A stretch of 64,000 nt of DNA from an uncultured delta proteobacterium (GCA_963796685.1 CAWCMR010000013.1:352001-416000), one strand, 5' to 3'; numbered from the stretch's first letter, positions 1,332 through 41,855 are shown. Numbers and translations are program-made. Notes: generated by a model not told the origin, from the sequence alone.

Positions 1332-1351
1332 CCCGACTTCGGGCACCGAAG

Positions 1352-1381
1352 TTGACAAGTGGTAGGGTGTTAACCTACATT
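1352..1381 (+). promoter_or_regulatory. sigma70-like promoter of argS
   Basis: TTGACA(1352)-18 nt-TACATT(1376), 8 nt before the argS ATG. Confidence 0.5.
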
Positions 1382-1389
1382 GTAGGCAA

Positions 1390-3177: not shown

Positions 3178-3238
3178 GAGGAAACCGTAACAGGGAACCC
3201 CCACTCAACTCATCGCCCGATTCGCCGAGGAGAATGCC

Positions 3239-4078
3239 ATGGGATACACTTCAGGGACTGCGATGGAAGATCGAGGCCTGCGTGACATCGAACGTTGGCG
3301 CGACAAGATCGAGGTGCGCCTCGACAATCGCCAGGTCTTCTTCCTGTTCTTTGGCAGCGCCCTCGTGGCCTGCATGCTCTTCGTGCTGGGTGTCATCGTG
3401 GGCAAGCGGTTGGAATCGCGCGGACGCGCGGTCTCGCCCGTCGTCGAAGATCCTCTAGCCTTGCTGGACAAGGTGGCCACGAGCCCGCGTCCCGTTCAGT
3501 CCGGGGTGACCTTCCCGCAAGCGTTGTTCGGCTCCGCCAACAAGGCTGCGGCCGACAAGCACGCCAGGAAGAACGGCCTTCCCGCGGCCGGCCACGCCGA
3601 AGAAGATTTGGCCGCGCACAAGGCCCTCGCGTTGGCCAAGCCTGGCGAGGGAGCGATGGCCGCGCCTGTCCCGACCAAGGTGGCTGACAAGGTCAAGACC
3701 GCCGCCAAAGCGGAGGACAAGTCTGTCGAAGTGGTCGCGCAGGAGAGGGCCGCCCAGCCTGCGCCGAGCAAGGCCAAGACGGTCGAGACCAAGGAATCCA
3801 AGTCTGCAATCATCCCGACCGTGGCGGCGGCAGGCGACAGCAAGAGCAAGGGCCGCTATGCCTTGCAACTGAGCTCGTTTCAAGACAAGAGCGAGGCCGA
3901 AGCCTTTGCGAAGAAATTCGAGGGCGAGCACCCCTACATGGTGGTGTCGGAGATCCCTGGGAAGGGCACCTGGTACCGGGTGCGCGTGGGTGACTACGCC
4001 ACGGCCAAAGACGCGCTGGTTGCCAAGCAGTCCTTCGAGAAGAAGCACAGCGTGATTGCCTACGTCGCGCAAAAGTAG
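3239..4078 (+). CDS. SPOR-domain bitopic membrane protein (FtsN/DedD-like)
   Basis: N-terminal TM, Ala/Lys-rich linker, C-terminal YALQLSSF...WYRVRVG SPOR domain; argS-SPOR synteny. Confidence 0.85.
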   Translation: MGYTSGTAMEDRGLRDIERWRDKIEVRLDNRQVFFLFFGSALVACMLFVLGVIVGKRLESRGRAVSPVVEDPLALLDKVATSPRPVQSGVTFPQALFGSANKAAADKHARKNGLPAAGHAEEDLAAHKALALAKPGEGAMAAPVPTKVADKVKTAAKAEDKSVEVVAQERAAQPAPSKAKTVETKESKSAIIPTVAAAGDSKSKGRYALQLSSFQDKSEAEAFAKKFEGEHPYMVVSEIPGKGTWYRVRVGDYATAKDALVAKQSFEKKHSVIAYVAQK

Positions 4079-4120
4079 GGCGATTCACGAATTGTCCGGG
4101 CGATTCGCCAATCGCTGCGG

Positions 4121-7100: not shown

Positions 7101-7158
7101 GCGATAACAGGACGATCAGTCCCGCAAGGAGGAGGGCCTGGTGTGAGAACCGAAACAC
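4121..7158 (-). CDS. Omp85-family outer membrane protein (BamA/TamA-like), split by a 1-nt frameshift near 5356
   Basis: ORF 5263..7158 has a signal peptide and POTRA-like repeats; ORF 4121..5302 has the barrel with FFAGGDTSIRGY and a terminal Phe; the frames join at GAG^TC. Confidence 0.85.
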
Positions 7159-7184
7159 GTGGGGAAGCTCAGGGTATCAGTCGG

Positions 7185-10100: not shown

Positions 10101-11806
10101 TTGACGTCGACCCGGCCACTGGCGTTCGGGCGATCCATGCTGCCGGTCACGTCCACTGCCAGCGTCGCGCTCTTTGCCAAGGGGCCCACCTTCATCGTCG
10201 AAAGCACCTTGGGCAGATCGGAAACGCCGACGCGCAGGCCGATGTCGAGCAGCTTCTTGGCCAGCTCCACCTTGCCGCGGATCTCGGCCGTGGCGCCCGG
10301 GACGGCGATGCGCAGACCGGACGTGCTCGCCGACTCGGACGAGGCCTGGGCTCGTCCGGTGATGCGGACCGAGCTGGGAATCGCCTTCTGTCTGTACGAG
10401 CGGTCGTAGCGCAAGTCGAGGTCGGAAAGCCGCACTGCCTTCTTGTCCCCGATGTTGGCGGCGATGCCGAGGTGCCCCTGCACCTTGCCTGCGGCGAGCT
10501 TCTTGAGCCCTTGGGGAAGGTAAGCGTCGGTGCCGAAGTGGTCGAACGCGAGGCGGGCGGTGATGTCGTCTCCGGCCATGGTCAACTGGGTCGAGAATTT
10601 CCCGCCCGACGGCGATTGCAGCGACAGCTCCTCGACCTTCACGGTCATGGTGGGCGCGGTGGTGGCGAATTCCAGGCCGGCCTCGAGCGAAATTTGTCGT
10701 GCCTCGTAGGTCTGGAAGGCGGCATTCAAACCGCTGATGGCGGCCTTGATCTTCAAGGTGTCGTAGGGATCCCACAGATCGCCGACCACCTTGGCGTCGT
10801 CGCCCGACAGGCGCAAGCCCGCGAGGTTGTGCGGCCTGGCCACGGCGGTCAAGGCGTCGACGGCATGCTCGAACCCGGCGTGGATCTTGATGCCGCCCAC
10901 GGAATTCGCGCCGTAAATGCCGGTGAAAAAGCCCTTGCCGACCAGCTCGCTGCGCCCGGTCTTGGCCAGACGCAGGTCGAGAAAGATGTCATCGGACCAT
11001 TCTCGCGTGGTCGCCACGCGGTCGACGAACACCTGGTCGAAGGGCAGCACCTCGGAAATGACCTTCAAGTAGCCCCCTTCGCGCGCCTCCAGGTTCGTCA
11101 CGTCGAATCCGACGAACCCTTCCCCGTCGACCAGCAGCGAGGCCGGCGCGTGGATATCGCGCAGATCGAGCCCCCACGACCCGGGAAAATCGAAGATCGC
11201 GCGGAAGCCGTCCAGGTTGGCGTTGACGATTTGAAATACGAAGCCCTTTTCCTTCTTGGCGCCGGGCGGGGGTGGGGGAGGAGGCGGCGCCGGGTGCTTG
11301 GGATCGAAGGCGGAAAGAAAGCCGATGCCCGGGAGCTTGGTCATCTTGGAGAAGCGCCACACCGACTTGTTCGGTCCCACGTGCAGGTCGGAGAGGATGA
11401 TGCCGCCGCCGCCGATCAGCGTTCTCAATCGAACGCTCACCTCCAGATGGGGAACATCGAGCACCGTGGTGCCTTCAGGATCCTTGATGACCAGCCTTTC
11501 CACGACCATGGGCGTGGCCCTGTCCGTCACAAGGTCGTAGAGCAGGCGAGGCTTCCAGAAAATGGCCCCGAAGTGCAGCGAGCCCTTCATCTCGGGCAGC
11601 ACGCCGTTCACGATCTTGGCCAGACGTTCCCCCTGGACGAAGAAGATCGCCACGAGCAAAACGACCCCCACGAGGGCGAGCAGGCCGGCCAGGACGTAGG
11701 CCACGGCCTTGGCTATCTTTCGTCGTAACTGCGCGGTCACACCAGTGCCAGAGTACCCCGAGCGCAAGCGCCTCGCCAAGCGCAGTCGGTAGTTGCCCAT
11801 GCGCAA
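7185..11806 (-). CDS. TamB/AsmA-like translocation-assembly protein, split by a 1-nt frameshift near 9011
   Basis: N-terminal TM anchor, long beta-rich repeats, C-terminal DUF490-like region (GTLSSPTLSGEI); adjacent to the Omp85 gene; start codon uncertain. Confidence 0.8.
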
Positions 11807-11835
11807 CTTTTCGCGAGTGCGTCCGACAAGGAAGT

Positions 11836-12532
11836 GTGCTCCTGGACCACCTCCTGTCCATTCTCTGGCCCGCCCGCTGCGCCGGGTGCAACGCCCTTGT
11901 CGTGGAAGGGGCTGGCTTCTGCGACCCTTGCGGAATCACCCTTGTTCCCCTGGGCCCCAGACTGCCCAGGCTGCGCGATGCCCAGCGAGGATGGTTGCCT
12001 TTGCGGCGGCTGCCGTCGAAGGCCCTTTCCCTTTTCGCAGGCCTTCGCGGCGGTTGCCTACGGGGGCGCGCTGACCCAAGCTATCCTGCGTTTCAAACAC
12101 GGCGGCCACCGCCATCTGGCCCGCTCGCTGGCCACCCTCCTGGCGCCGGTGCTGAGGTCGGCAGCGAGGCAAGGACTCGACGTGGTCTTGCCAGTGCCGC
12201 TCCATCCCAGGCGGTTGCGCCAGCGCGGTTACAACCAGGCCCTCGAGCTCGTGCGCGCGGCCAGCGTGGGCGTGCCCCCAGGCGTTCGCGTCCTTTGCGA
12301 CGCGTTGTCGCGAACGCTCGAAACCCCGACGCTGGGACACCAGTCGGCGGCGCTACGCAGACGGATCGTGGCCGATGCCTTTGTTGCGCGTCCGCAGGCG
12401 GTAACTGGCAAGCGTATCCTGGTGGTGGACGACGTCATGACGACAGGCGCGACACTGGCCGAATGTGCCCGCACACTCTTGGCCGCCGGTGCGTCCAAGG
12501 TCATGGTCGCCGCCTTGGCTCGCGCGGTTTGA
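11836..12532 (+). CDS. comF: ComF-family phosphoribosyltransferase-like protein, frameshift near 11961
   Basis: N-terminus LWPARCAGC in frame 11836 joins PVPLH..RGYNQA..VDDVMTTGAT in frame 11834. Confidence 0.85.
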
Positions 12533-12572
12533 GGCGGTCTGCCTTTTGCCCGCGCGATTCGTGATTCCTCCC

Positions 12573-12600
12573 TTGACACACGATTTCGGATCGCTAAGGT
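12573..12600 (+). promoter_or_regulatory. stable-RNA promoter of tRNA-Val
   Basis: TTGACA-16 nt-TAAGGT followed by a GC-rich discriminator. Confidence 0.6.
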
Positions 12601-12626
12601 AGCCGCCCTGGACAAGAACAAGGCAC

Positions 12627-12698
<72 letters not shown>

Positions 12699-12703
12699 CA
12701 AGG

Positions 12704-12729
12704 AAAAGGACCCGCGAAGGGTCCTTTTT
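12704..12729 (+). terminator. intrinsic terminator after tRNA-Val (bidirectional form)
   Basis: AAAAGGACCC-GCGAA-GGGTCCTTTTT. Confidence 0.85.
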
Positions 12730-12950
12730 GACCCCAGCGGATGAGCGTTGTCGGGTAAGAACCGCCCGTGCTCGCGCGATCCGCTATCGACAGGAAAGCG
12801 GGGAAAGCCGAGCAATTCAAAGTGCGGAATGCTATCCTGCGCAGCCATTGCGTCCCCACCATCCAACTGCTGCGACCCTTTTGCGAAACACCGGACCCGT
12901 CGCTTGCGCGAGCGACGATGATGGATATTCGCGTTCGGAGACCATGAACC

Positions 12951-14738
12951 GTGAGTGAGCCTGTTCGCCCCCGTGACAAGGGGGATGTTCCCGATGAGCC
13001 TCTGTCCCGCTTGCGCCACTCGGCGTCACACGTCATGGCCGACGCCGTCCGCCGCCTTCGCCCAGGCGCCAAGGTAACCATCGGTCCCGCCATCGAAAAT
13101 GGCTTCTACTACGATTTCGACACCGAGCCGTTCGCGCCCGAGGACATCGAGCGCATCGAGGCCGAGATGGCCAAGATCGTCGCGCAGGATCTGCCCTTTG
13201 TGCGCAAGGTCATTTCACGCCAAGAGGCCCTGGCGATGTTCGAGAGCAAGGGCGAGACCTACAAGGTCGAGATCATCCGGGGAATCCCGGAGGGCGAGGA
13301 GATTTCTCTTTTCCAGCACGGCGATTTCGTCGACCTGTGCGCCGGGCCGCACGTGCAGCGCACGGGCGAGATCAAGGCCTTCAAGGTGCTTTCGTTTGCC
13401 GGCGCGTACTGGCGCGGCGACGAGCACAACCAGCAGCTTCAACGCGTCTACGGAACGGCCTTCCCTTCCAAGGAAGAGCTGGCCGCGCACCTTGCCCGCC
13501 TGGAAGAGGCCAAGCGTCGCGATCATCGCCTATTGGGCAAGCAGCTCGATCTGTTTTCCTTCGACGAGCTGGTCGGCCCGGGCTTCGTGCTCTGGCATCC
13601 GAGGGGCGCCATCCTGCGCCAGGTGCTCGAGGACATGATTCGCAAAGAGGTCGTCCGGCGCGGCTACCAGGCCGTCTACACCCCCCACGTGGCACGCGAG
13701 CAGCTGCTCGAAAAGTCGGGCCACATGGCGCACTACAAGGACAATCTCTTCGGAGGCATGGAGCTGGAAGGGCAACGCTACCTGGTCAAGCCCATGAACT
13801 GCCCCTTCCATGTGGCTATTTACCGCTCGCAGCTACGCTCCTATCGCGAGTTGCCCATTCGCTACGCCGAGCTTGGCACGGTCTATCGCTACGAGCGCTC
13901 GGGCGTGCTACACGGCCTTCTGCGCGTGCGTGGATTCACCCAGGACGATGCGCACTTGTTCATCACCGAGGATCAGATCGAGGCCGAGCTGGCCGCCTGC
14001 GTCGGTTTCGGCATGGATCTGCTCCATCTCTTCGGTTTCGAGGACGTGAAGTTTTTCATGTCCACGCGCCCCCAAGACTTCATGGGCGAAATCGAGGCGT
14101 GGAACAAGGCCGAGGCCGCGATTCGCCGCGTCCTGGAGGCCAGCGGCCACCCGTTCGAGGTCGACGAGGGCGGCGGCGCTTTCTATGGTCCCAAGATCGA
14201 CCTCAAGATTCGCGATGCTCTCGGCCGCGACTGGCAGTGTACGACCTTCCAGCTCGACTACCAGATGCCCGAGCGCTTCGCTCTGGAGTACGTGGCTTCG
14301 GATGGTTCGCGCAAGCGCCCCATCATGATCCATCGCGCCTTGCTGGGTTCCATCGAACGCTTCATCGCCGTGCTCATCGAACATTTCGCCGGCGCCTTCC
14401 CGATGTGGCTCGCGCCGGTGCAGGCGCGGGTGATCTCGGTCAGCGAGAAGGCAGAGGCCTATGCGCGCGAAGCCGAGGGCGTGTTGCTGGCTGCCGGCTT
14501 GCGCGTGGACGCCGACCTGTCGGCGGACAAGCTCAACGCCAAAATTCGCCGCGCGCAGCTGGAGAAGATTCCGTACATGTTGGTGGTGGGCGAACGCGAC
14601 ATGGCCGCGCGGGTGGTTTCGCCGCGTACGCGCGAAGGCAAGCAGTTGCCCGCGATGCCCCTCGATGACATGGCCAAGACCTTGGTTGCCGAAGCGGCGG
14701 TTCCGTCGCTGGGCAATGCGGGCGCCAAAGTAGCGTAG
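12951..14738 (+). CDS. thrS: threonine--tRNA ligase (lacks the N-terminal TGS domain)
   Basis: RHSASHVMA, DLCAGPH, KPMNCP, YRYERSG, GAFYGPKID motifs. Confidence 0.97.
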   Translation: MSEPVRPRDKGDVPDEPLSRLRHSASHVMADAVRRLRPGAKVTIGPAIENGFYYDFDTEPFAPEDIERIEAEMAKIVAQDLPFVRKVISRQEALAMFESKGETYKVEIIRGIPEGEEISLFQHGDFVDLCAGPHVQRTGEIKAFKVLSFAGAYWRGDEHNQQLQRVYGTAFPSKEELAAHLARLEEAKRRDHRLLGKQLDLFSFDELVGPGFVLWHPRGAILRQVLEDMIRKEVVRRGYQAVYTPHVAREQLLEKSGHMAHYKDNLFGGMELEGQRYLVKPMNCPFHVAIYRSQLRSYRELPIRYAELGTVYRYERSGVLHGLLRVRGFTQDDAHLFITEDQIEAELAACVGFGMDLLHLFGFEDVKFFMSTRPQDFMGEIEAWNKAEAAIRRVLEASGHPFEVDEGGGAFYGPKIDLKIRDALGRDWQCTTFQLDYQMPERFALEYVASDGSRKRPIMIHRALLGSIERFIAVLIEHFAGAFPMWLAPVQARVISVSEKAEAYAREAEGVLLAAGLRVDADLSADKLNAKIRRAQLEKIPYMLVVGERDMAARVVSPRTREGKQLPAMPLDDMAKTLVAEAAVPSLGNAGAKVA

Positions 14739-31177: not shown

Positions 31178-31207
31178 CGGTCGAGCCCCGACCTGGCACT
31201 CATCTCG

Positions 31208-31281
31208 TGACCCCGGCCTGATTCGAACAGGCGACCTACGGTTTAGGAAACCGTCGCTCTATCCACCTGAGCTACGGGGCC
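31208..31281 (-). tRNA. tRNA-Arg(CCT)
   Basis: minus strand GGCCCCGTAGCTCAGGTGGATAGAGCGACGGT-TTCCTAA-ACCGTAGGTCGCCTGTTCGAATCAGGCCGGGGTCA. Confidence 0.95.
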
Positions 31282-31284
31282 AAA
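31243..31284. repeat. att site, left copy (5' half of the intact tRNA-Arg)
   Basis: TTAGGAAACCGTCGCTCTATCCACCTGAGCTACGGGGCCAAA. Confidence 0.92.
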
Positions 31285-31295
31285 TGGTTTGGGTT

Positions 31296-32534
31296 CTAAC
31301 TACTTAGGGCTACTTTTTCTTCTGCGTTATCTTGCTGCGTGGTGGCCATAGTGTGCCCATTTGGGCCGGCAACGTCGCGAAGAGATACCACGTTCCCCTT
31401 GGGAGTGGAAAGGTCCGCTGGCATGACTTCGTAGTCGGTTTGCCGGAAGAGATCCGCCCGAAGGTGGCTGTATCGCTCGGTGGTGGTGATGCTGGCGTGG
31501 CCCATGATCTTGGATAGCTTCTCAACGCTGCCACCGCCAAGAACAAACTGCGACGCGAACGTGTGTCGGGTGCATTGATACCAGGTCATGGGAGACAGCC
31601 CGCACTTCTTCAGGGCCGCGCGTAGGTGCTTGGCCAGGGTCTGGGGCCTGGTGTACTCCGCGGGCGTCTCTGGCGTGCCACCACGTAGGGGATGGACGGG
31701 CGGAAAGAGTAGGCCCGTGCCGCCCGTGGCGAGCTTCCATTGTGTCAGGACGGGCACCAGGGGGGTCAGCATGGGAACCGCGCGGGAATCGGTATCCTTC
31801 AGCGGCCCGATCCTGCCTCGGTTGACCTGTTGCCGGATGTGAAGGCGCCGGTTCTCGATGTCGCAGTCTCGCCAGTTCAACCCCAGCACCTCGCCCGTGC
31901 GAAGTCCCGCGAACGCGCCGACGGCGAAGGCTACGTTGACAGGCGAGGGCAGCAGCCGGAAGACGCGCTCGATGTCGCTCATCTTCTCGATGAACGCCGT
32001 TGTCCGTGAATCGTGGCCTGGACGGTAGAGGCGCCGAGTAGAACGGGGCAGGGCGCTTACCGGGTTCGCGGGGGCGTGCCCCTGTTCGATGATGTCGGCG
32101 AAGAAGGTCGACATCTGGCGGATCAGATTCCCGACTGTGTTCGCGGCCAAGCCCTTGGCGAGCTTGTCTTCGATGAATCTGCGAAGCTGGGCGGCGTCGA
32201 TCTCGTGCGCCTTCATCTTGCCGAAGGCGGGGCCAAGGTGGGTATTCCACCGGGAACGGTCATCCCGGCATGACCTGTGCGTGGCCTTGCGCCGTTCGAG
32301 CCAAGCCTTTGCCAGCGTTTCGAGGTTCGGGGACTCGTCGTAGTCGCGGGGCAAACCAGCGTCACCGGCGGCGACGTCCCTCGTGATCTTGGCAAGAACT
32401 TGCTCAGCGAGATCCTTCGAGGCGAACGATTTGCAGCACCGCCGGCCATGCTCGCGCCAGCGAATCCACCACCGGCCGCTGCGCTCGAATAGCGAGCCAG
32501 TGCCCCACGTTCGGCGTCGAGGCTTACGAGGCAT
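31296..32534 (-). CDS. tyrosine recombinase (phage-type integrase)
   Basis: arm-binding N-terminus [16 protein letters not shown]; catalytic [29 protein letters not shown]. Confidence 0.95.
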
Positions 32535-32883
32535 AGGCCACCTCGCGGTTGCCGTTGGCCGTCGCGACGAGCGCCCGCACGTGAAATGCCGCACGAATGG
32601 GCAGCGACTGCCGTAGGCGCGCGGCCAGACTCTCGCGGATCTCTTTGCATAGTCCACACTCGAAGTTCGTATCTGTGCGGGTGTTCTCGTTCACGTACAA
32701 CGTGAGCGAGCCACAGACGCAACAGGGCCGCCAGGCCGCGAACCTGACGAGCACGGCGCACAGGTTGCCTTCGATGGGTGCTGGTGTTGGTGGCTTCATC
32801 CTGGCGGCCAGGCATCGCCGCCTGTCCTCTTCCAATTCCGCCGGGGTTGCGGTTCGTTCTCGAACGCGTGCTATCTTGGCCAT
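32524..32883 (-). CDS. hypothetical Zn-finger protein overlapping the integrase start
   Basis: AAGGAG SD; CCVCG...CGLC. Confidence 0.6.
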   Translation of the reverse strand: MAKIARVRERTATPAELEEDRRRCLAARMKPPTPAPIEGNLCAVLVRFAAWRPCCVCGSLTLYVNENTRTDTNFECGLCKEIRESLAARLRQSLPIRAAFHVRALVATANGNREVAYAS

Positions 32884-32994
32884 GTCGGATCTCCTTTCAC
32901 GGGGCGTGAAGACCACGGGGCAGGCTGTTACAGCAGCGCTGCCCCATTTTTGTTGGCGGGGTACTCGTGGCGCGGAGTTAGGGCGCGCGGGCAG

Positions 32995-33249
32995 CTACTG
33001 GCGCGGCTTCGAGTGCTCGGCGATCCAGCTATTCAGGATGATCTTGATAGCTTCGCTTCGGCTGACTCGGGCGCTTCCAGCGGGCTTTTCGTTGGACATG
33101 CGTGCGGCTTCCACGTCCAAGGCTTTGATAAGCGCGGCCGACGCCTTGAAACTCAAGGTCGTGTCCTCATCTGCCGGGCGAATCTTGGGCCGTCCCACGT
33201 CGAGGATTCTCGCTCTTTCCTGCCTGGTAGTCGATTTTTCTGCGTGCAT
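32995..33249 (-). CDS. ribbon-helix-helix (CopG-like) regulator
   Basis: GRPK..TTLSFKAS..LIKALD..VSRSEAIKIIL; TTGACT-17-AAAGAT directly upstream. Confidence 0.7.
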   Translation of the reverse strand: MHAEKSTTRQERARILDVGRPKIRPADEDTTLSFKASAALIKALDVEAARMSNEKPAGSARVSRSEAIKIILNSWIAEHSKPRQ

Positions 33250-33313
33250 GGTTACTATCTTTGCCTGTGGTAGTTATTTAGTCAATAAAGAAACGACACA
33301 GGTGTAGGCTCGC

Positions 33314-33715
33314 CTATTTTTCCGCCCCATTGGGCGCACTTTGGCCACGAAGCACTGCGCCTTTTCGTGCAATTCTCGCCGGTGAATGCGCTGGTAGAGC
33401 ATCGGTTCGCGCATCCGAGGCGCGCCCTTTCGTGGCCAGATCGCCAGCGCACCACGGCTCACCAATGGCTTTGAGCAAGCTCGCCGGGAACCATTCTGGC
33501 ACATGGCCGCCCTGCTCAAGGTATAGGGCAAGCTGGCTGCGCAGCTTCACGAGCGCTCGACCGATTCCCGGATCGTCGGGCCGCCCGGCGCAAAGCCAGC
33601 GGTCCACAGTGCCGTCCAGCAGCGAGGTTGCCCCGCCGTGAAACGCCGCCCAAGTCAGAAGCGCCATGATCGCCAAGGCGACTTCGCCGCGCAGATCGGA
33701 CTCGGTCGCGGTCAT
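33314..33715 (-). CDS. hypothetical protein
   Basis: ATGA-coupled to the DUF5681 gene. Confidence 0.55.
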   Translation of the reverse strand: MTATESDLRGEVALAIMALLTWAAFHGGATSLLDGTVDRWLCAGRPDDPGIGRALVKLRSQLALYLEQGGHVPEWFPASLLKAIGEPWCAGDLATKGRASDARTDALPAHSPARIARKGAVLRGQSAPNGAEK

Positions 33716-34392
33716 GGCTCGTCCCTGGCCTTGGGCGGTTCGTTTCCTCGCAAGGTCCCAGCCGCTGGCTGTGTCTGGTCCGCAGATTCCTGCGCCGCCG
33801 CCGGGCCAGCCGTAATCGCTCGCGCTGGCGTCTCGCCGTCCAGCATCGCCTGTATCTCCTCGGGCGACTTGTTGGCCACGTTCTTGCCGAGGAGCTTGAG
33901 CACGAGAGCCACCTTCGCCTGGTCGATCGACAGCAACAGGCGCACCATCTCGCCGAATTCTGACTCGCGCATATCGCCGCTGACCAGTCGATGCCGATAC
34001 ACGTCGACCGTGATGTCAAGCAAGCTGCGCGTGGTGTCGATGCCCTCGGGAATGTTGACGGGCCGTTCTGCCTTGGCGGGAAGGCCGGCGTAGTATTCGA
34101 GCAGCGTGCGGATGGTCTGGTCGCTGCCCCTGTCCCCGCCGATGGCACGGTCGAATGCGGCTTCCATGATCCTGCGAAAACGCGTTTTGTCTCCGTCGAA
34201 TGGTTCGTCGAGAAACCGGGCCACCTCGGTGGCCTTGTCCCTGCCGTTGATGCCGCGGGGGTTCCCTGTCTCACCCTTGCGGAAAGGCGGCCGGAGATTG
34301 GCGAGTCTCCGCGCCCTGGCGGTTGCCTTGGCGTCCATTTCCGCTTCGGTTCCTTGGCCGGTGGTAGGTAGCGAATCGTCCAAGGTGTTCAT
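33712..34392 (-). CDS. DUF5681-motif protein (small terminase-like)
   Basis: NLRPPFRKGETGNPRG signature followed by a helical domain. Confidence 0.7.
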   Translation of the reverse strand: MNTLDDSLPTTGQGTEAEMDAKATARARRLANLRPPFRKGETGNPRGINGRDKATEVARFLDEPFDGDKTRFRRIMEAAFDRAIGGDRGSDQTIRTLLEYYAGLPAKAERPVNIPEGIDTTRSLLDITVDVYRHRLVSGDMRESEFGEMVRLLLSIDQAKVALVLKLLGKNVANKSPEEIQAMLDGETPARAITAGPAAAQESADQTQPAAGTLRGNEPPKARDEP

Positions 34393-34640
34393 GGCTGGCC
34401 CCCTAATGCTTCACCGTTGCCGGGAATCGCGGCGTCTTGCCACCGTTCGCGCCGCGTTGGCGCTTCCCTGGTATCTCGCCGCCTTGGCACGGGCCTAAGC
34501 TCGAAAAGGGGGCAGGACGGCGTCGTGCAGGCTTCGACCTGTTGGCGCCAGGTCCCGCCACCTACAGGATCGAAGATGCAGCCCTTGCACGCGGCGTTGA
34601 TTGCCCGGCGCATACTCGGCCGTGTGGATGCGGGCTTCAT
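34389..34640 (-). CDS. small Cys-rich phage/satellite-type protein
   Basis: RRAINAACKGC..QVEAC..CPLFELRP; ATGA overlaps on both sides. Confidence 0.65.
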   Translation of the reverse strand: MKPASTRPSMRRAINAACKGCIFDPVGGGTWRQQVEACTTPSCPLFELRPVPRRRDTREAPTRRERWQDAAIPGNGEALGGQP

Positions 34641-34837
34641 CGGTACAGCCCTTCGTGTTGCGCCGTCTTGCCAAGGCAAGGCCCTTGCTGCCTCGGTGGG
34701 CTCTTGCGCTTGTGGCGCTCAATCTCGCGCCAGCACCCGAGGCAGACGATTGCACCGGCGGTGAAGTGAGCTTCTCGCCACTCGCTCGCTCCGCAGACGC
34801 GGCATGCCTCGCGCTGCCCAAAGCTTCGTTCACTCAT
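34637..34837 (-). CDS. small Zn-ribbon protein
   Basis: AAGGAG SD; CRVCG..CLGC. Confidence 0.55.
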   Translation of the reverse strand: MSERSFGQREACRVCGASEWREAHFTAGAIVCLGCWREIERHKRKSPPRQQGPCLGKTAQHEGLYR

Positions 34838-35075
34838 GAGCGCTCCTTTCTCTCGCCAGACGTTTCGTCGAATTCGTGCCGCCTAACGTGGTGCCATGAA
34901 CGCCCAACGCGTGCGGGCGCGCGCTGAGCGTGAGGTAGGTTTTCGCCAACTGTGGCGATACCTCATCGCGCGCGTGCGCGCGTGAGGGTTCAACGTGCGT
35001 GTGCGCGCGCGTGAGCTTGAAGGCAGGCGACGATGCGTGCGCGTGAGCCTTCCCTGTTCGTTTCGCCGCGGTCAT
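34830..35075 (-). CDS. hypothetical protein overlapping GCGCGTGAG repeats
   Basis: ATGA-coupled to the primase stop; low-complexity AH repeats. Confidence 0.4.
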   Translation of the reverse strand: MTAAKRTGKAHAHASSPAFKLTRAHTHVEPSRAHARDEVSPQLAKTYLTLSARPHALGVHGTTLGGTNSTKRLARERSAHE

Positions 35076-37624
35076 TGCAATCCCTGCGGCTTGGGCTCCC
35101 TGGCCAAGAACTCACCCACGGTCGGCGCGGGCGCAGACCGCCAGTAGGACCACAAGCGTTGGCCGGCCGCCTCTGCCGTGCCATTCAGCCCCCGGAAGTG
35201 CTCGGCTAGGGCGTCGCGGTCGCCATCGCTGGCCATGGTGCCGGGCTTGGCCCGGAGGCAGTGGGCAAGCTGGGCCAGCGGATCAGGCGCGTCCGCAGCG
35301 GTGGTCAGGTGGTCAGGTGGTGGGCAGCATTTCCCCCCTTCCTTCGTAGAACTATCTTCTCGCGGGAGGGATAGGGGGTTTTGCTGACCACTCCTGACCA
35401 CCTGACCACCGTCCGTCAAGAGTCCGAGCCCATGCCAGCCCCGGACAGATTCCCCGGATACCTTCATTTTCGCGTCGACGATGCCGCGCCGCTTGAGGTG
35501 GTCGCCAAACTCGCGGGCGTGCATCGGGTGCTCGCCCTCGCGGGCGCACCATGCCTCGTAGCTGGTGCGGAGCGCAGAGCGCGACACGCGCGCGTCCGGT
35601 GCCAGTAGGCAGCACTCGCCGAGGTACGGGGCCAGCCGGTCGGACTCCTCGCGATACTCGGCCGTGGCCGCGACGATGGAAGCGCACGCCGATTCGAGGC
35701 ACCGAGGATCGCGCTGCCAGGCCGCGCACCCTACAAGCGCCCAATTCAGGATGCCGGGTAGCTCCGCCCGGAGCTTCGCCGGCAAATCCAGATCCCGACG
35801 CTCTGGCGGAACCACACGATCAAACGGAATGAGCTTGAGACGTCGCCAGATGCCTTCGTCTTGCCCGCGCACGATCGGCTTGTGGTTGCCGGTGAGCACC
35901 ACCTTGTGGGTCGGCTTCCAGGTGACTGGCCCCTCGAACAGGTTTCGGGCCGTCATGGTGTCTGCGCTCGCGAACGCCTTCACTCGTGGTTCGTCGAATT
36001 TGCCGGCGGGCAGCTCCGGAAACAGTGCCCAGCGTGCTCCGCGCAACGGCATGATCTCGCACGCATGCCCCTGGTACTCTTTGGCCATGAGCACCGAGGC
36101 GGGCAGCACGGTCGCGTAGTCACCCAGCAACGCCCCCACCGTTTCGCAGAGCACTGACTTGCCGTTGGCCCCCAGACCGTACAGGAACACCACGACATGA
36201 TTTTTCGTCGAGGCAGTGAGGCAGAATCCGATGAATCGCTGGAGGAATGCGATTGTCTCGCTGTCGGGCAACACCTCGTCGAGAAACTGCGTCCACCTCG
36301 GACACGTGGCCGCCGCGTCGAATGCGACGGGCGCGAGCTTGGTAATTCTGTCCGCCGGGCTGTGCGGGCGCAGTGACCCGGTTTGCAGGTCGATTGCGCC
36401 ATTCGCACAGTTGAGCAACGATGGGTCCGCATCGAATTGCCCGGCCATGGTGGTCAGTCCGAGGTTCGCGGCGGTGGCTCCCTCAATCAGCTTTCGCCGA
36501 CCTGCAACGGTGTTGTAGCGTTTGGCGATCGCCAGACGGGCCTTGTATTGCTGGCCCAGCGGATCGTTGAGGGCATCGCGCAGATACGCCTTTGCAACTT
36601 CGATTGCCTCGCCAAGTAACCAGCACTCGCCCGAATCGCGCACCCACCGCGCGCCGTCGTATCGATACCAGGCGAGCGCATCTGTCGCATACAGGGCGCG
36701 ACCACGAATCAAATCGGCAAACCGCTGCGTCGCCAGCGCGTCCTCAAGCACACCGTCGTAGGACCGGCCGACGCCGTCGGTTGCAATTGATGGATCGTCG
36801 GCCGTCACCGCCGGTTGCGACGCGGGCCGCGGTGCCGGCGTCCATTCTGGCGCCGCTGCAACCAGAGCGCGCAACTCCTCGACGGTGTGCCCGGCGGCCA
36901 ACCAATCGCACACGTCACCTTTTGCAGGCAGGGCGGGCAGTTCGATCACCTTGAGCGAGGCAGCCACGCTGCGCAGCGATTGGGCCACGTGCGCGGCGTG
37001 CTTGGCTCCGGGCGGGTCGTTGTCGGGCAGGATGACAACGTGCCGGCCGGTGAAGGGTTCGCGGAAGCGCTTCGTGTCCCAGAGCTTGGTGCTGCCGGTG
37101 CCGCCGGGGTTCGTGGTCGCAACCAGGCCCAGTGCGGCCAGCGCATCGCAATCCTTCTCTCCTTCGCAGCCGAACACCGGAGCGTCCGCCGGGGCTGCCA
37201 GTAGCGCCGGCAGGCGGTAAGGGATTCGCTCGATGTCTTTCAGGTTCCAGATCCACCGATCGTCCGGTCCGCGCCTCCGCGGTCGAAAGTCTTTGGGGTT
37301 GAATCTGCAAATCTCGAAGCGAACCGCGCCGGCCGTCTCCTCGTAGGGATAGACGGCGACGATTCGTGGCTTGATCGCCGGGGTCTCTGCCCGTGGTGGA
37401 AGGACGTCAGGCCAGGTCAACCCCAGCGCCCTGAGAATCGCATCGCCTGAACCTTCGCCGTGCCCTTGATCGTAGAGTAAGACGATGTCGCCCTGGAATT
37501 CCAGGGATCCAGACGCGTTCTTCTCTTCACGCAGCGGCGATAAGAACTTCCACTTGTTGGCACCTGTTGACCGCAGCTTGTACGGCTGTAGCCTCTGAAG
37601 CAGGAGTGTTTGGCCAGTAGTCAT
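35072..37624 (-). CDS. P4-family primase-helicase (TOPRIM + D5_N + SF3 helicase)
   Basis: CEGEKD..LPDNDPPG..KGDVCDW (TOPRIM); LLNCANGAIDL; GLGANGKS Walker A; GNHKP..IWRRLKLIPF. Confidence 0.93.
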   Translation of the reverse strand: MTTGQTLLLQRLQPYKLRSTGANKWKFLSPLREEKNASGSLEFQGDIVLLYDQGHGEGSGDAILRALGLTWPDVLPPRAETPAIKPRIVAVYPYEETAGAVRFEICRFNPKDFRPRRRGPDDRWIWNLKDIERIPYRLPALLAAPADAPVFGCEGEKDCDALAALGLVATTNPGGTGSTKLWDTKRFREPFTGRHVVILPDNDPPGAKHAAHVAQSLRSVAASLKVIELPALPAKGDVCDWLAAGHTVEELRALVAAAPEWTPAPRPASQPAVTADDPSIATDGVGRSYDGVLEDALATQRFADLIRGRALYATDALAWYRYDGARWVRDSGECWLLGEAIEVAKAYLRDALNDPLGQQYKARLAIAKRYNTVAGRRKLIEGATAANLGLTTMAGQFDADPSLLNCANGAIDLQTGSLRPHSPADRITKLAPVAFDAAATCPRWTQFLDEVLPDSETIAFLQRFIGFCLTASTKNHVVVFLYGLGANGKSVLCETVGALLGDYATVLPASVLMAKEYQGHACEIMPLRGARWALFPELPAGKFDEPRVKAFASADTMTARNLFEGPVTWKPTHKVVLTGNHKPIVRGQDEGIWRRLKLIPFDRVVPPERRDLDLPAKLRAELPGILNWALVGCAAWQRDPRCLESACASIVAATAEYREESDRLAPYLGECCLLAPDARVSRSALRTSYEAWCAREGEHPMHAREFGDHLKRRGIVDAKMKVSGESVRGWHGLGLLTDGGQVVRSGQQNPLSLPREDSSTKEGGKCCPPPDHLTTAADAPDPLAQLAHCLRAKPGTMASDGDRDALAEHFRGLNGTAEAAGQRLWSYWRSAPAPTVGEFLAREPKPQGLQ
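35300..35410. other. putative replication origin: inverted iteron arrays inside the primase 3' end
   Basis: GGTGGTCA x2 + GGTGGGCA (35300-35326) facing TGACCACT + TGACCACC x2 (35385-35410). Confidence 0.65.
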
Positions 37625-37920
37625 CGCCGCGCCTCCGCGGCCAGCGCCGCCACCGTGGCCCGGTCAATGGGCCGGAGGCTGGCCAGGTCCACGCGGATAG
37701 AGCGCCCATGTCGGACACACGGGTAGGTGCCATCCGCAATTCTACGTCTCACCGTTGCGGGCGAGCCGTACCCTAGTCGCACGAGTTCGGCCACGGTCAC
37801 GAGTCGGCTTGGGCTGGCCGCGCGGAGTGCATCCACTGTCGCGCGCAGCTCACGAATTTCGCCAACAAGAGGCGCGACGGCTGCGCCCACGACGTCGGCC
37901 AGGGCGGTGTCGAGGCTCAT
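37621..37920 (-). CDS. excisionase-like HTH DNA-binding protein
   Basis: LVTVAEL..SPATVRRRIADG..RHGRSIRV. Confidence 0.8.
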   Translation of the reverse strand: MSLDTALADVVGAAVAPLVGEIRELRATVDALRAASPSRLVTVAELVRLGYGSPATVRRRIADGTYPCVRHGRSIRVDLASLRPIDRATVAALAAEARR

Positions 37921-38135
37921 GGCCGCACCGTGGGGGTGATGGGCGCCAGCGCCTCGCGCACTATGAGGAACGTGCCGCGATGGATGGGCAGGGCGCCCCG
38001 GATGCGGTCGACCGTGTTCCGGGATATTCCGAGTAGCTTGCAGGTCCTCGCCAACCCTTCGCGGGCAAGCAGATGGCGAACCGCGGCGACTACCGCCGGG
38101 GGCGGTGTAACCAGGCCGAGTTGATTCTGAGGCAT
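37917..38135 (-). CDS. small HTH protein (Cro-like)
   Basis: LARTCKLLGISRNTVDRI; ATGA-coupled to the excisionase. Confidence 0.6.
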   Translation of the reverse strand: MPQNQLGLVTPPPAVVAAVRHLLAREGLARTCKLLGISRNTVDRIRGALPIHRGTFLIVREALAPITPTVRP

Positions 38136-38198
38136 GCCATAATTAGGGCCACGCCCGCGGACCTAGAGACAGGGATACAAAATCCCAGCCGACCAACT

Positions 38199-39494
38199 CT
38201 ATTTTGTATCTGGGATTGATCGTTTGAGTCGATTGCGGACAGCTTTTCGGAGGTTCTGCGGTGTGTGGGGGTCCGGGTCAAGACGCAGGTTCTTTCGGTC
38301 GAGGATCGTCGCCACTGCCCTCCAATCTTTCAAGCCACGGGCATTCAACGCAACAGCAGCGTCCACGGCTGGCTTTGGAGGCCTCTTCCTCGGCCGCCCG
38401 AGACTCTGGCACATGGCCCGCGCCTCGTTGGCCACCGCAGCGAGATCGCGCGCCGTGAGTGCGACTTCGTCGGCAGTACAGGGCTCACCCCTGGCGATGC
38501 AGTCCACAAGCCACGCCGCACGAGGGACGCCGTCAGCAGCCAATCGCGCACCCTCCAGAATGCGAAGGAGAGGCAGCAACACTTCATCTCTCACGGTCGC
38601 AGCGTTACCTGGCGTAACGAGAAGCGGGGGCAGGTCCTGGGCCGCCCGGTCAGCTAGATGCGCGATCTTGGGTGCCAGCATTCTCAATTCTTCGTTGCGC
38701 TCTTGAGTCTTGGCTGCAGCCTCAGCCGGCGCAACGGCATCGCAAGCCGCCGCCCACTTGCCTTGTCGGCGATACTCAGCCAAGGAGGCTTCGGCAGCTT
38801 CGACTGCCTTGGGAGTGTCGCCGTACTCCGAGATCGCATCCTGTAGGAGTTCCTTCCGCATCATGTCTTCGTCGCTGGGCCTTGGCTCCGCCGCAATCTC
38901 CCGCGCTTTGTCCTCCGGCAAGAAGGTGCGGAGGATGGCGACGGTTTGCTCTTCTGCCCACCTGGGATCAACCACTGGAGGGGGCGTAGGCAGGCGGTCC
39001 TGGAACGATTGCCCGTCCTCATAGATCTCGTGCATGAGCTTGGCCGCTGGACCGAACACACTGCCCAACGCGTTAAATATCTCGAAGAATTGGTCCTGCT
39101 CCACCTTCGGCAGATTCGCCCACCACTTCCGAATTGCTTGCTCGTCAGCGTCGGATAGTTCGGAGAGAAAGCTCGAAAGTTCTTCCTCAGGTTGCCCTTT
39201 TGGTTCTCGCGTCTTCTTGTAGGCGTCGGCGAGCTGGCTGAATTTCTCGACCGGATCAACTTCGCACTTGCGGTTGCCTTCACTCTTTCCCGTGGACGGC
39301 CTCGGGGCTCGCTTCTGGCGGGCCTTCACCGCTTCCCCGGCATCTTGCCCAACCTCGACCGTGCTCGTCGCACTAGTGCTCGCTGACTTCGCCTGGCACG
39401 GATTCTTGGGGGGGGTCGACACGGTTGCATTCCCTGCATTCCGTTTCGAGGAAGGAAGCCGGGCAGGGCCGTGCGGGAATGCGCGCCGGCCCAC
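38199..39494 (-). CDS. hypothetical protein with basic C-terminal HTH-like region (start uncertain)
   Basis: 431-aa ORF; C-terminus GRPRKR..WRAVATIL..LRKAVRNRLKR. Confidence 0.55.
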   Translation of the reverse strand: MGRRAFPHGPARLPSSKRNAGNATVSTPPKNPCQAKSASTSATSTVEVGQDAGEAVKARQKRAPRPSTGKSEGNRKCEVDPVEKFSQLADAYKKTREPKGQPEEELSSFLSELSDADEQAIRKWWANLPKVEQDQFFEIFNALGSVFGPAAKLMHEIYEDGQSFQDRLPTPPPVVDPRWAEEQTVAILRTFLPEDKAREIAAEPRPSDEDMMRKELLQDAISEYGDTPKAVEAAEASLAEYRRQGKWAAACDAVAPAEAAAKTQERNEELRMLAPKIAHLADRAAQDLPPLLVTPGNAATVRDEVLLPLLRILEGARLAADGVPRAAWLVDCIARGEPCTADEVALTARDLAAVANEARAMCQSLGRPRKRPPKPAVDAAVALNARGLKDWRAVATILDRKNLRLDPDPHTPQNLRKAVRNRLKRSIPDTK

Positions 39495-39718
39495 GGTTCG
39501 GGGATCAGTCCGATCCGCTGCCCGGATCTAGAGTAGCAGCTTAATGCAGAAATCGACGTTGCAGCTCTGGGATCGCCTACCGTGCCCATGGGCGGAACCA
39601 TGCCTTCCGTATCGCGCCTGCCGGTGGTCAGACCGCGCGGGCGCTTCTGTTTCAAGCTGCCAAGGACGGCGGCGGATGACTAGACGGCCTAGGCCGGCAA
39701 GCGTGCCGGAGCAAGGCG

Positions 39719-40015
39719 CTACCCGCCCGTGACCCTGCGCCTCGGCTTGATCGGCCGGCCGACCGGCCGTCGGATTGGGGGCTCGGCAGACCGACGGAAT
39801 AGGCGCGCCAGGGGTACACCAAAGGCCTCCGCCGCTGCCACAACGGTTCTGAGTGTAGGATTCAAGGCCCCATATTCGAGTTTTTGCAGGTGCTTGAGAT
39901 CGATCCCCATGGCGTCGGCCGCCTGCTGCTGCGACCATCGACGGGCAGCACGTAGGTGCGCCAGATTCGCGGAAAGATTCCGCTTGGCGCTCTCGAAGGA
40001 CGGCTGTGAGACCAT
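39719..40015 (-). CDS. XRE-family HTH regulator
   Basis: NLAHLRAARRWSQQQAADAMGID..LEYG..NPTLRTV..AEAFGV. Confidence 0.85.
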   Translation of the reverse strand: MVSQPSFESAKRNLSANLAHLRAARRWSQQQAADAMGIDLKHLQKLEYGALNPTLRTVVAAAEAFGVPLARLFRRSAEPPIRRPVGRPIKPRRRVTGG

Positions 40016-40153
40016 GTCCCACCCGTAGCGGCAAACGGCTCCACCAAAAACCTCACCAATGGGGTAATATGTGCATTCTGGTGCCGACAGACCTTTCCAC
40101 CCGGACCATGGAGAAGGCACCGAAACTAGGTTTTCTTCAAATGGAGGGATGAC

Positions 40154-40609
40154 ATGAAGTGGACGCTTGTGGTTCTCCTGGCAGCCGTGGCCGCGTCTGG
40201 CTGTGGAAGCGGGTCAAGCGACCCACTACAAGGAACTTGGGTCGACAACCCCGGCACGGCGGCGGCGGTCCAGGCGATCTTCAAGGGCGACGCATGGGAG
40301 ATCGATACGATCAGCGTGCTGACAACTGGCTCGACCGGGTTGGAGTCAGATTCAGGCACGTACGTTCTTTCAGGCAGCACGATCATGTTTACGACGACAA
40401 AGTCGAGCTGCGAGGGCGTGGACACTGTTGCCAAAACGTTCACGGCGACATTCAGCACCCAAGGGCAAAGCCTGACCATGAACCTTGGAACGACTGTCCT
40501 CCTATTTCAAAAAGCGACTGCACCACCTCAAGGAATGGGAGGCGCGAGCGTGGGCTGCTTCGACTCCCAGGGCAACTTCACGGTCAACCCGATCAAGACC
40601 GTTCCCTAG
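40154..40609 (+). CDS. lipoprotein (lipocalin-like beta barrel)
   Basis: GGAGG SD; lipobox AASGC; LQGTW motif. Confidence 0.7.
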   Translation: MKWTLVVLLAAVAASGCGSGSSDPLQGTWVDNPGTAAAVQAIFKGDAWEIDTISVLTTGSTGLESDSGTYVLSGSTIMFTTTKSSCEGVDTVAKTFTATFSTQGQSLTMNLGTTVLLFQKATAPPQGMGGASVGCFDSQGNFTVNPIKTVP

Positions 40610-40671
40610 TGCGCCGGGTTCGTTTCGACCGCCTTTTGGCCAAAAGGGCGAGACGGCGTGATAATAGCACC

Positions 40672-41472
40672 ATGAAGAGGCTCGCCTTAGGAGGGATGGC
40701 TGCCCTGACAGCCCTGCTTTCGCATTGGGGGTGCGCGACTCTCACTCCAGAGCAAGCTGCCGAACGAAGGCGGGAGAGGGATGAGGAAAACCAGCGAAGG
40801 GTGATGCAGCGGGAACTCGCGACGTCACCGCCGCCAGTCGCCCCCTACACCGCCCGCCCACCGCTCTGCAACGAGACAAGATCGCCCGGCGTCATCAAAG
40901 TTACCTGCCGGGCCTACGACAATGTGCCATGGTACACAGGGGCAATTTTCGACCAAGTCCATCGGATGGCCGCCGAGTCCACGCTCGCCGCCGGCAAGTC
41001 CTACTTTCAAAGCCTAGGAATAGTGATTCTGGGTGTTCAGACTACCCAACCAATCTGCCGCGAAGAGGTTGATCGGACGTCCGCAGTGCTTGTTGGGATA
41101 GGCAATGCGCTAAGTGGGGCGGGCGAAACTAAGACCAGGTGCTCCACCACTGTGGGCAATGACGTTGAGTGCACCACAACGCCTGCCCCCCCGCCTGCAC
41201 GGCCCAAGTCCAGGACTGTCTGCGAAGGTGGTGGGGAACTTCAATGGATCGACTCGGTGGAGTCCTTTGAGATGCTAGATGCGGATCAGGCTGCCGCTCG
41301 TAGTGATCCCTTGATTCCCTCTGCGAAGCGGCCTATCGAAGCACGCGCGGTTCTCGCGCCAAGAACCGCAATTCAGCCGGTTCCCGCCAGTCGGGTGGCG
41401 CCCATCAGCCAGCCGTCGCGGTCCCGTCAGAACGCGGAAACTGACCGAAAGTCCGACCCCTTCGAGAAATAG
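40672..41472 (+). CDS. hypothetical lipoprotein
   Basis: MKRLALGG..HWGC lipobox-like signal. Confidence 0.6.
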   Translation: MKRLALGGMAALTALLSHWGCATLTPEQAAERRRERDEENQRRVMQRELATSPPPVAPYTARPPLCNETRSPGVIKVTCRAYDNVPWYTGAIFDQVHRMAAESTLAAGKSYFQSLGIVILGVQTTQPICREEVDRTSAVLVGIGNALSGAGETKTRCSTTVGNDVECTTTPAPPPARPKSRTVCEGGGELQWIDSVESFEMLDADQAAARSDPLIPSAKRPIEARAVLAPRTAIQPVPASRVAPISQPSRSRQNAETDRKSDPFEK

Positions 41473-41747
41473 TGCCCAGTCCCGTGTGCGGCGCCTTCCG
41501 GCGATCTTGCACCAGCTAGAGAAGGTCATGAGTTTGGGCACCTCGCAGGCCAAGCTCCCCGGCGGCCCATCGGTTTGGTCTGTCAGGTGCGTCGGATGTT
41601 GTCCTGGCGCATGGTGGCCATAGTGTGCCCAATCGCCCCTAAGAGGTGCCCATTTCTGGCGGTCATACCTTTGCCACAACCGAGAGAAAACCACGCCGTG
41701 ATTGGGGTGACGGTGCCCCTTGTTCACGGGCCGTAAAAACCAAGCTC

Positions 41748-41789
41748 TTAGGAAACCGCCGCTCTATCCACCTGAGCTACGGGGCCAAA
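41748..41789. repeat. att site, right copy (displaced 5' half of tRNA-Arg)
   Basis: TTAGGAAACCGCCGCTCTATCCACCTGAGCTACGGGGCCAAA. Confidence 0.92.
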
Positions 41790-41855
41790 CGGTTGAACCA
41801 TTAGATAGTCTGTTTCGCGGCGGAGATCCATCCTCGGATGCGGCGTTGTTCTCGC

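Follow-up and report, generated by a model that had tools for sequence, protein, structure and literature searches.

A candidate phage satellite integrated at the 5′ half of a tRNA-Arg gene in a member of the Myxococcota

How might a small chromosomal element spread if it encodes neither a virus particle nor an apparatus for conjugation? The question is raised by an insert of 10.5 kb within a 64,000-nt stretch of DNA from an uncultured delta proteobacterium (GCA_963796685.1, CAWCMR010000013.1:352001-416000). We call the whole of this stretch the window, and coordinates are counted from its first letter. An initial annotation of the window read the insert as a satellite that depends on a helper phage. 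On balance we think it probable, if far from certain, that this is an intact phage satellite of the functional type represented by the phage-inducible chromosomal islands (PICIs) and the virion-encapsidated integrative mobile elements (VEIMEs). Most likely it would ride in the particles of another phage, because it appears to excise and to replicate and has a lone packaging-type gene without those of a virus shell. Its size and gene content match the satellites as described in PMC10085698 and PMC9618062.

The ends of the element were sought as direct repeats between positions 29000 and 44000. The longest pair is of 47 nt (31243-31289 and 41748-41794), identical at 45 of 47 positions (96%, 2 mismatches), and 10.5 kb lies between the two copies. 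The 42-bp attachment (att) repeats previously reported to bound ~10.5 kb (31243-31284 and 41748-41789, one mismatch) fall inside this repeat, and the claim is sound. It overlooked the nature of the att core, which corresponds to half of a tRNA gene, the 5′ one. The minus strand encodes tRNA-Arg(CCT) at 31207-31281 (ARAGORN, and Rfam at 64.8 bits), the single copy among the 50 tRNAs of the assembly, and the 47-nt repeat, read in the direction of the tRNA, begins 8 nt before its 5′ end and stops at the 3′ side of its anticodon loop. It therefore represents the 5′ half of the gene, which places the island upstream of the tRNA. The attL core repeat (31243-31289) includes the 5′ 39 nt of the tRNA gene, the upstream DNA of which is therefore now derived from the element. 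The attR core repeat (41748-41794) is the displaced original 5′ half together with its native upstream DNA.

A 17-kb query was compared with 31 related genomes (alignment A1). In two congeners (contigs G002:C14 and G001:C4) the site is empty, the left flank with the tRNA joining the right flank with a 41-nt overlap that corresponds to the core. Because the site is uninterrupted in two genomes of the same genus, the boundaries are real and the insertion is recent. This is a discrete, recently mobile integrative element.

A second direct repeat (34 nt, 85% identity) has one copy 37 nt in from the left end, at 31326-31359 within the 3′ end of the integrase gene, and the other 117 nt in from the right end, at 41598-41631. 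Excision as a circle would bring the two copies to either side of the attP core, and they are candidate arm-type sites. The same layout of repeats of this type around the core is found in the related locus L016 (loci are denoted L, genomes G and contigs C).

The corresponding tRNA-Arg(CCT) locus of another congener (L021; G010:C14:652000-665000, positions 10237-10732) has, beyond the tRNA gene, three additional copies of the 3′ half of that gene (43 nt) at spacings of 126-148 nt. Both halves of this tRNA gene seem to serve as integration sites. The 5′ side of that tRNA has ~8 kb of unrelated DNA, with no match to the proteins of the 10.5-kb element.

We scanned 15-17 open reading frames (ORFs) of the element against Pfam, PHROGs and NCBIfam. 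Along the minus strand the gene order is XRE-family regulator, 431-aa protein, helix-turn-helix (HTH) protein, excisionase-like protein, primase-helicase, small zinc-ribbon proteins, DUF5681 protein, 133-aa protein, ribbon-helix-helix (RHH)-like protein, zinc-finger protein and integrase. Start and stop codons of successive genes overlap from the gene for the 72-aa HTH protein to that of the 133-aa protein, so that we regard the genes as one operon. The last gene of the operon encodes the integrase, and its stop codon is separated by 15 nt from the 5′ end of the co-oriented tRNA gene that follows. All the ORFs of the element are intact.

The integrase gene (31296-32534, minus strand) encodes a tyrosine recombinase of 412 aa from an MPRKP start, and matches to PF00589 (E 8e-17) and phrog_1 (E 2e-51) bear out its earlier identification. 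A 99-aa protein (37621-37920, minus), whose stop codon overlaps the start of the primase gene, had been called an excisionase. Its match to HTH_17 is below the cut-off (E 0.002), but the matching ORF in L017 passes that cut-off, as do HTH_17 proteins encoded beside the integrase in L037 and L038; we call the protein excisionase-like.

The adjoining gene (35072-37624, minus) encodes an 850-aa TOPRIM / D5_N / SF3 primase-helicase of the P4 family. Its assignment as such holds, with matches to D5_N (E 2e-27), TIGR01613 (E 1e-73) and phrog_6088 (E 1e-130), and to DUF5906. The 3′ end of the gene contains inverted octamers at 35299-35411. The octamer GGTGGTCA has 13 matches in the window where 1.77 are expected, and four exact copies are clustered in 111 nt (35300-35410). 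It is repeated two to three times, followed by a 75-nt spacer and then by the octamers in inverted orientation, giving 19-nt arms that are 100% complementary. Inverted octamers of different sequence are present at the 3′ end of the primase gene in three of four relatives examined that have a D5-type primase-helicase (L015, L019 and L028); this architecture is not clear in L013 or L054. The iterons thus change with the replicase, as expected of an origin bound by that protein, and the segment 35299-35411 is likely to be the replication origin. In IMG/VR the primase found 31 loci, 29 of which share only the N-terminal TOPRIM region, the other two being weak full-length matches.

None of the ORFs matched a capsid, portal, large terminase (TerL), tail, relaxase or type IV secretion system family in the three databases, as had been noted at the outset, nor a holin, connector, lysis or coupling-protein family. 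An FtsK-like translocase family was likewise absent from the matches.

The packaging-type gene (33712-34392, minus) encodes a protein of 226 aa, with a DUF5681 domain at residues ~32-107. A direct Pfam scan gave only E 0.075 for this assignment, but it was then confirmed by profile comparison. On using hhalign to compare the alignment of the protein with its relatives (A2) with that of the phage proteins (A5), a probability of 98.8% (E 9e-17) was obtained over residues 32-107; the C-terminal half of the protein is without a match. A hidden Markov model (HMM) of the phage copies alone matches the 226-aa protein at E 1.5e-7. Only seven relatives besides the protein itself are found in 5.8 billion clusters, of which five (P0004-P0008) carry PF18932, and the homologue in L016, aligned in A2, scores 33.3 bits against PF18932. 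An HMM search of the Protein Data Bank (PDB) with the 226-aa protein returned nothing, and its L016 relative gave two weak matches, to hypothetical proteins.

A search of IMG/VR with A2 found 12 loci, 11 of which were scanned with Pfam, leaving out one near-duplicate. In all 11 the DUF5681 match lies directly upstream of TerL, and in five of these a portal gene follows. The domain is therefore found in the position of a small terminase (TerS) in viral loci. Against the PDB the phage profile scores best, though weakly (E 0.04), with a small terminase (7joq), and one of eight phage copies matches phrog_2538 (terminase small subunit). In a congener (G006:C4) two TerL (Terminase_3) genes are preceded, with one ORF in between, by the gene for a relative of 140 aa (37% identity over 93 aa), and seven distinct small elements of the genus that lack TerL carry a long-form DUF5681 gene, with differing integrases and replication genes. 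By profile comparison, then, the DUF5681 domain of the 226-aa protein is a member of a family whose place in phage genomes is that of the small terminase, and this gene position suggests that the protein may act as a TerS.

The locus of the 140-aa relative (L131; G006:C4:22000-41000, positions 3045-10481) comprises Prim-Pol/DUF3987, a DNA methylase, the DUF5681-like gene, a 119-aa ORF and the two Terminase_3 genes in tandem. No portal or capsid gene follows the pair, and the locus is either a degraded prophage or another hitcher element.

How widely is this kind of element distributed? A search with the integrase as a single sequence returned no relatives in genome contigs; use of alignment A4 found 80 loci. 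Almost all are in metagenome-assembled genomes (MAGs) labelled Myxococcales, Anaeromyxobacter, Labilithrix, Polyangia or Deltaproteobacteria, with soil, fen and groundwater as habitat labels, and the lowest-scoring loci come from Bdellovibrio-like MAGs and a single Acidobacteria MAG. Among 47 loci with a near-full-length integrase gene, a tRNA gene is directly downstream and co-oriented in 16, on the opposite strand in four, and not present in the DNA examined in 27. The 16 co-oriented loci use ten anticodons, and the displaced 5′ half of the tRNA was recovered in five of them together with L013, L014 and L016. The family is one of Myxococcota-specific integrative islands, which use at least ten tRNA species through their 5′ halves and often include defence systems. 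A 5′ tDNA fragment was reported for 159 of 3919 Islander islands (PMC4383910, Table 1), so this configuration is rare but known; a term search of PMC9897764 found no mention of the ends, fragments or promoters of tRNA genes.

In L030 and L049 the integrase, of the same clade (46-50% identity), adjoins a tRNA gene of opposite orientation, as in the classical arrangement at the 3′ side. It would seem from these two loci that the symmetric site at the anticodon loop is open to the clade in both orientations.

At least six other elements with the same type of integrase could be delimited, with sizes of 6.5, 6.9, 7.5, 9.5, 10.0 and 12.3 kb. The 12.3-kb element (L013; G000:C15:412000-430000, positions 1062-13424) is a second family member in the same genome, integrated in tRNA-Gly(CCC), again at the 5′ half. 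Identity to the proteins of the 10.5-kb element is ~40-43% for its primase and 57% for its integrase, and it also encodes an MqsA-like XRE protein and several proteins of no known kind.

This family bears upon the idea that the element is the deleted stump of a full prophage. Such an origin could be read into the phage homologues of its primase-helicase, excisionase-like protein, XRE regulator and DUF5681 protein, and congeners do contain remnants of a methylase and DUF5681 without TerL (L129 and L130). We nevertheless give it very little credence. The near-identity of the att copies (45/47) and the empty site in two congeners argue against it, as do genes that are all intact and overlapping. 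Moreover, the six other elements are equally small, and no capsid, portal, tail or TerL family was found in these or in six further integrase loci examined to 7-10 kb. Lastly, replication modules have been swapped within the family, L014 and L031 having a TOPRIM-DnaB protein in place of the D5-type primase, with retention of the compact layout.

A number of observations weigh against a satellite. Excision, replication and encapsidation of the element are processes that we infer from its genes. The 226-aa protein scores only 14.1 bits against PF18932 (cut-off 27.5), has no PHROG match and no tblastn match in 50,697 phage records, and its AlphaFold2 (AF2) model is poor (pLDDT 52) and thus unfit for a fold search. 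In the one paper that names the domain (PMC8954984), DUF5681 was detected in a virion proteome, with no function assigned. Among 16 unselected metagenome loci having DUF5681 and at least 1.2 kb of downstream sequence, TerL was detected in only six by tblastn, a search of low sensitivity. Nine of the ten others were examined with Pfam; eight have a DUF5681 ORF of 151-222 aa, none of the nine has a TerL family, and several of the ORFs lie among ordinary chromosomal genes. The domain may thus bind DNA in some other role, or these loci may be the edges of other small elements. The metagenome contigs with DUF5681 contained only distant relatives, and no terminal overlaps that would suggest a circle. 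No gene for capsid morphogenesis or interference was recognised in the element. Nor was a helper found in its own assembly (88.6% complete), a scan that covered the HK97 capsid, portal and three TerL families (PF05065, PF04860, PF03354, PF03237 and PF04466, all absent), so that any helper would not be resident; a Terminase_3 gene is present in only one of 13 genomes of the genus. Finally, L033 and L035 carry only defence cargo in the 10 kb beside the integrase gene, with no replication or DUF5681 genes, and the integrase family as such is therefore not specific to satellites.

Several of these points would fit an integrative island that replicates itself and is not packaged by a phage, either an element like the integrative and mobilizable elements (IMEs), transferred with the aid of a conjugative system or otherwise, or a 'hitcher', in which the DUF5681 protein would be a DNA-binding regulator or partition factor. 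The occurrence of DUF5681 without detectable TerL, the lack of a helper prophage in the genome and the relatives that are plain defence islands all favour it. Known systems in the family are QatABCD, AbiJ and type I restriction-modification (R-M) in L033, DRT UG39 in L020, ThsA-like SIR2 in L037, and PD-T4-6 kinase, Ppl, PD-T7-4 and AbiJ in L035. Furthermore, four ORFs (those of 431, 133, 130 and 96 aa) have no assigned function, and with the 226-aa ORF they matched no family in Pfam, PHROGs or NCBIfam.

The largest of these proteins (38199-39494, minus; 431 aa, or 407 from the likely start) is lineage-restricted, with only nine homologues, all unnamed. Its AF2 model (pLDDT 79) is all-α. It has no Foldseek match at E <= 0.001 in the PDB or BFVD, a wide search with VIA matched nothing more specific than four-helix bundles (Z <= 11.3, less than is needed for a meaningful match between helical bundles), and the ESM Atlas provided no usable lead. 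HK97 capsid, HUH relaxase and FtsK-type proteins are expected to have mixed α/β folds, which the all-α model therefore lacks. This counts against a non-packaged island, and no relaxase, coupling protein or secretion family was found in the element or the whole assembly (VirB4, VirD4-type coupling protein and relaxase; PF03135, PF02534 and PF03432), although a novel relaxase is possible. In addition, clear DUF5681 homologues with a recognisable functional neighbour sit only upstream of TerL. On this evidence we consider a non-packaged island rather unlikely. The satellite proposed in the initial annotation is favoured by the mobility of the element, its integrase, excisionase-like protein, primase-helicase and candidate origin, and a lone TerS-type gene without virion or conjugation genes; dependence on a helper phage and packaging in its particles are the proposed parts of that reading, and no helper is present in its own assembly.

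The defence systems of the relatives occupy the slot between the excisionase and replication genes and the distal att site, and the same slot in the 10.5-kb element contains the 431-aa protein, the XRE regulator and two proteins encoded on the plus strand. The regulator (39719-40120, minus) was correctly identified (HTH_3, E 1e-10). Of two claimed lipoproteins, the first (40154-40609, plus; 151 aa) has a signal peptide ending ASGC and homologues in L016 and L024; the second (40672-41472, plus; ~266 aa) is a secreted protein, or probably a lipoprotein. At 39729-40200, a stretch with the XRE gene and the beginning of the divergently oriented lipoprotein gene, there is 87% nucleotide identity to L024 (G000:C9:127416-127873). 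L024 is part of another small element of the same genome, one with a DUF5681-like gene of its own, and the likeness points to exchange of a module or to a shared repressor specificity.

The element might thus exist mainly to carry cargo, with integrase and replication genes needed only for its maintenance, while the 431-aa protein, XRE regulator and lipoproteins constitute an unrecognised module for defence or surface modification. The use of the slot in relatives and the sharing of the XRE-lipoprotein module point that way. We consider it very improbable, given that PADLOC found nothing among 13 ORFs of the window save a generic HTH model on the XRE protein, and that the origin, primase-helicase and DUF5681 gene would be left unexplained. 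A cargo function is however compatible with a satellite, because satellites have been described as encoding defence systems (PMC10085698). Another recurrent cargo in several small elements of the genus is a Sel1-repeat protein of 470-690 aa with 108-nt periodic DNA repeats (L014, positions 2816-3960, and L132/L133).

The remaining genes on the minus strand encode small proteins. A 130-aa CxxC...CxxC protein (32524-32916) overlaps the start of the integrase gene and is kept beside it in L013, L014 and L017. A 4-Cys protein (34389-34679) also occurs in L014. The 66-aa CxxC...CxxC zinc-ribbon protein (34637-34837) has tblastn relatives in ten loci, representing nine distinct places as L010 and L013 overlap, and in those checked against the primase call the gene is directly downstream of that for the primase. 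An 84-aa protein (32995-33249) had been termed an RHH regulator; the match is weak and below the cut-off (E 0.008), and the protein is conserved in L013, L014, L015 and L017. The 133-aa family-specific protein (33314-33715) has 52 homologues, none named, with no Pfam or Atlas match, and the 72-aa HTH protein (37917-38135) is a weak match to HTH_23. Between the primase and zinc-ribbon genes are three GC-rich direct repeats of 15-19 nt, ~30 nt apart (34968-35048), which may be an operator, a pac site or an accessory to the origin.

Four further ORFs are probably not genes. That at 34830-35075 (81 aa) overlies the GC-rich repeats and is not conserved, that at 40126-40479 is an antisense shadow of the lipoprotein gene, and those at 32597-33307 and 41275-41727 have no matches and are not conserved. 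A scan for promoters and terminators gave results at the level of chance.

If the element is a satellite, its cycle might be as follows. Upon infection by a helper phage, or its induction, the excisionase-like protein and integrase would excise the element as a circle. The P4-type primase-helicase would fire the iteron origin lying within the 3′ end of its own gene. The DUF5681 protein, acting as small terminase, would recruit the large terminase of the helper to the DNA of the element, which would be packaged in helper capsids, possibly as concatemers since no gene for capsid resizing was seen. By sequence, the integrase recombines at the anticodon loop of tRNA-Arg(CCT), and it is the 5′ half of the gene that travels with the element. 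The rebuilt tRNA would then be transcribed from DNA of the element, either by read-through from the integrase gene or from a promoter within its 3′ end. Since the 5′ half is carried by the element, each such element would replace the promoter of a host tRNA.

Might the element represent a family of satellites not previously described, as the initial annotation proposed? This is plausible, because the relatives form a family restricted to the Myxococcota. A literature search found no phage satellites described for this phylum, and the main text of PMC10085698 makes no mention of it. We put forward tentatively, as somewhat less likely than not, a Myxococcota-wide satellite family that would be defined by the anticodon-loop integrase clade using tRNA 5′ halves (at least ten species), a long-form DUF5681 TerS, octamer origins within the primase gene and the carriage of defence systems. 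If true, the biology of helpers and satellites would extend to social, predatory soil bacteria, helper phages as yet unseen would be indicated, and DUF5681 would gain its first, and testable, function. The use of tRNA 5′ halves raises the question of how a rebuilt tRNA is expressed from the DNA of the element. Lastly, the modular family, with swapped replication genes and such systems as QatABCD, AbiJ, DRT and ThsA-like SIR2, is a source of parts for integration and replication in myxobacterial genetics.

How does the element compare with known systems? A PICI is defined by integrase, regulator, primase-replicase, capsid morphogenesis and small terminase components, with tail, holin and portal genes forbidden (PMC10085698). 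Likened by gene function and not by PICI core profiles, the element would have four of the five, resembling 'Type B'. It shares with PICIs an integrase, regulators, a primase-replicase with adjacent candidate origin, a TerS-type gene without TerL, a size of ~10 kb and accessory genes at the ends, together with the lack of tail, holin, portal and connector genes in its 10.5 kb. For the PICI regulation module (alpA, merR or stl) it has the XRE protein (HTH_3 E 1e-10), and HTH_17 only at E 0.002, below the cut-off. Unlike PICIs it has no capsid-morphogenesis gene recognised in Pfam or PHROGs, with four ORFs lacking an assigned family, although PICIs of the Staphylococcus aureus pathogenicity island (SaPI) type also lack that gene (PMC10085698). 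Other differences are that its TerS candidate is a DUF5681 protein, that the integrase gene is the last of a co-directional operon and abuts a tRNA, with integration at the tRNA 5′ half, and that the host belongs to the Myxococcota, whereas >99.9% of surveyed PICIs are in Proteobacteria or Firmicutes (PMC10085698).

The closest functional picture is that of the marine VEIMEs. These range from <5 to 16.8 kb and have a tyrosine integrase, a primase/helicase, AlpA/excisionase-type HTH proteins and TerS homologues, without a major capsid gene; they are proposed to be packaged as concatemers in full-size helper capsids, and are defined by their recovery from virus particles (PMC9618062). Size and types of gene agree with those of the 10.5-kb element, the comparison being one of gene types. 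Habitat (soil, fen and groundwater MAGs as opposed to marine) and host phylum differ.

With P4 the element shares a P4-family primase-helicase (TIGR01613, E 1e-73), a size of ~10 kb and integration at a tRNA gene. The P4 origin, like the candidate origin of the element, is made of repeated octamers that the primase-helicase presumably binds. P4 relies on cos sites and is not known to encode a terminase. In the element, Pfam and PHROGs detected none of Psu, Delta, Sid and Ash/epsilon, so that only the α-type primase is shared, and 93% of P4-like elements are in Enterobacteriaceae (PMC10085698).

The element differs from capsid-forming PICIs (cfPICIs) in lacking capsid, portal, protease, connector and TerL genes in the Pfam, PHROGs and NCBIfam scans. 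The integrase of the reference PICI-like elements (PLEs) is a serine recombinase (PMC9618062), whereas that of the element is a tyrosine recombinase, and no PLE-type families (RepA, NixI, CapR and others) were matched. From IMEs, integrative and conjugative elements (ICEs) and actinomycete ICEs (AICEs) it is distinguished in that no relaxase, coupling protein or FtsK-like translocase family was matched. Like the Islander islands of this configuration (PMC4383910), it has a tyrosine integrase and lies between a tRNA gene and the 5′ fragment displaced from it, but here the 5′ configuration typifies a whole integrase clade, with 16 of 47 loci and ten anticodons. The element thus differs from the described satellites in host phylum, integrase clade, integration at the 5′ half of a tRNA, gene order and type of TerS candidate.

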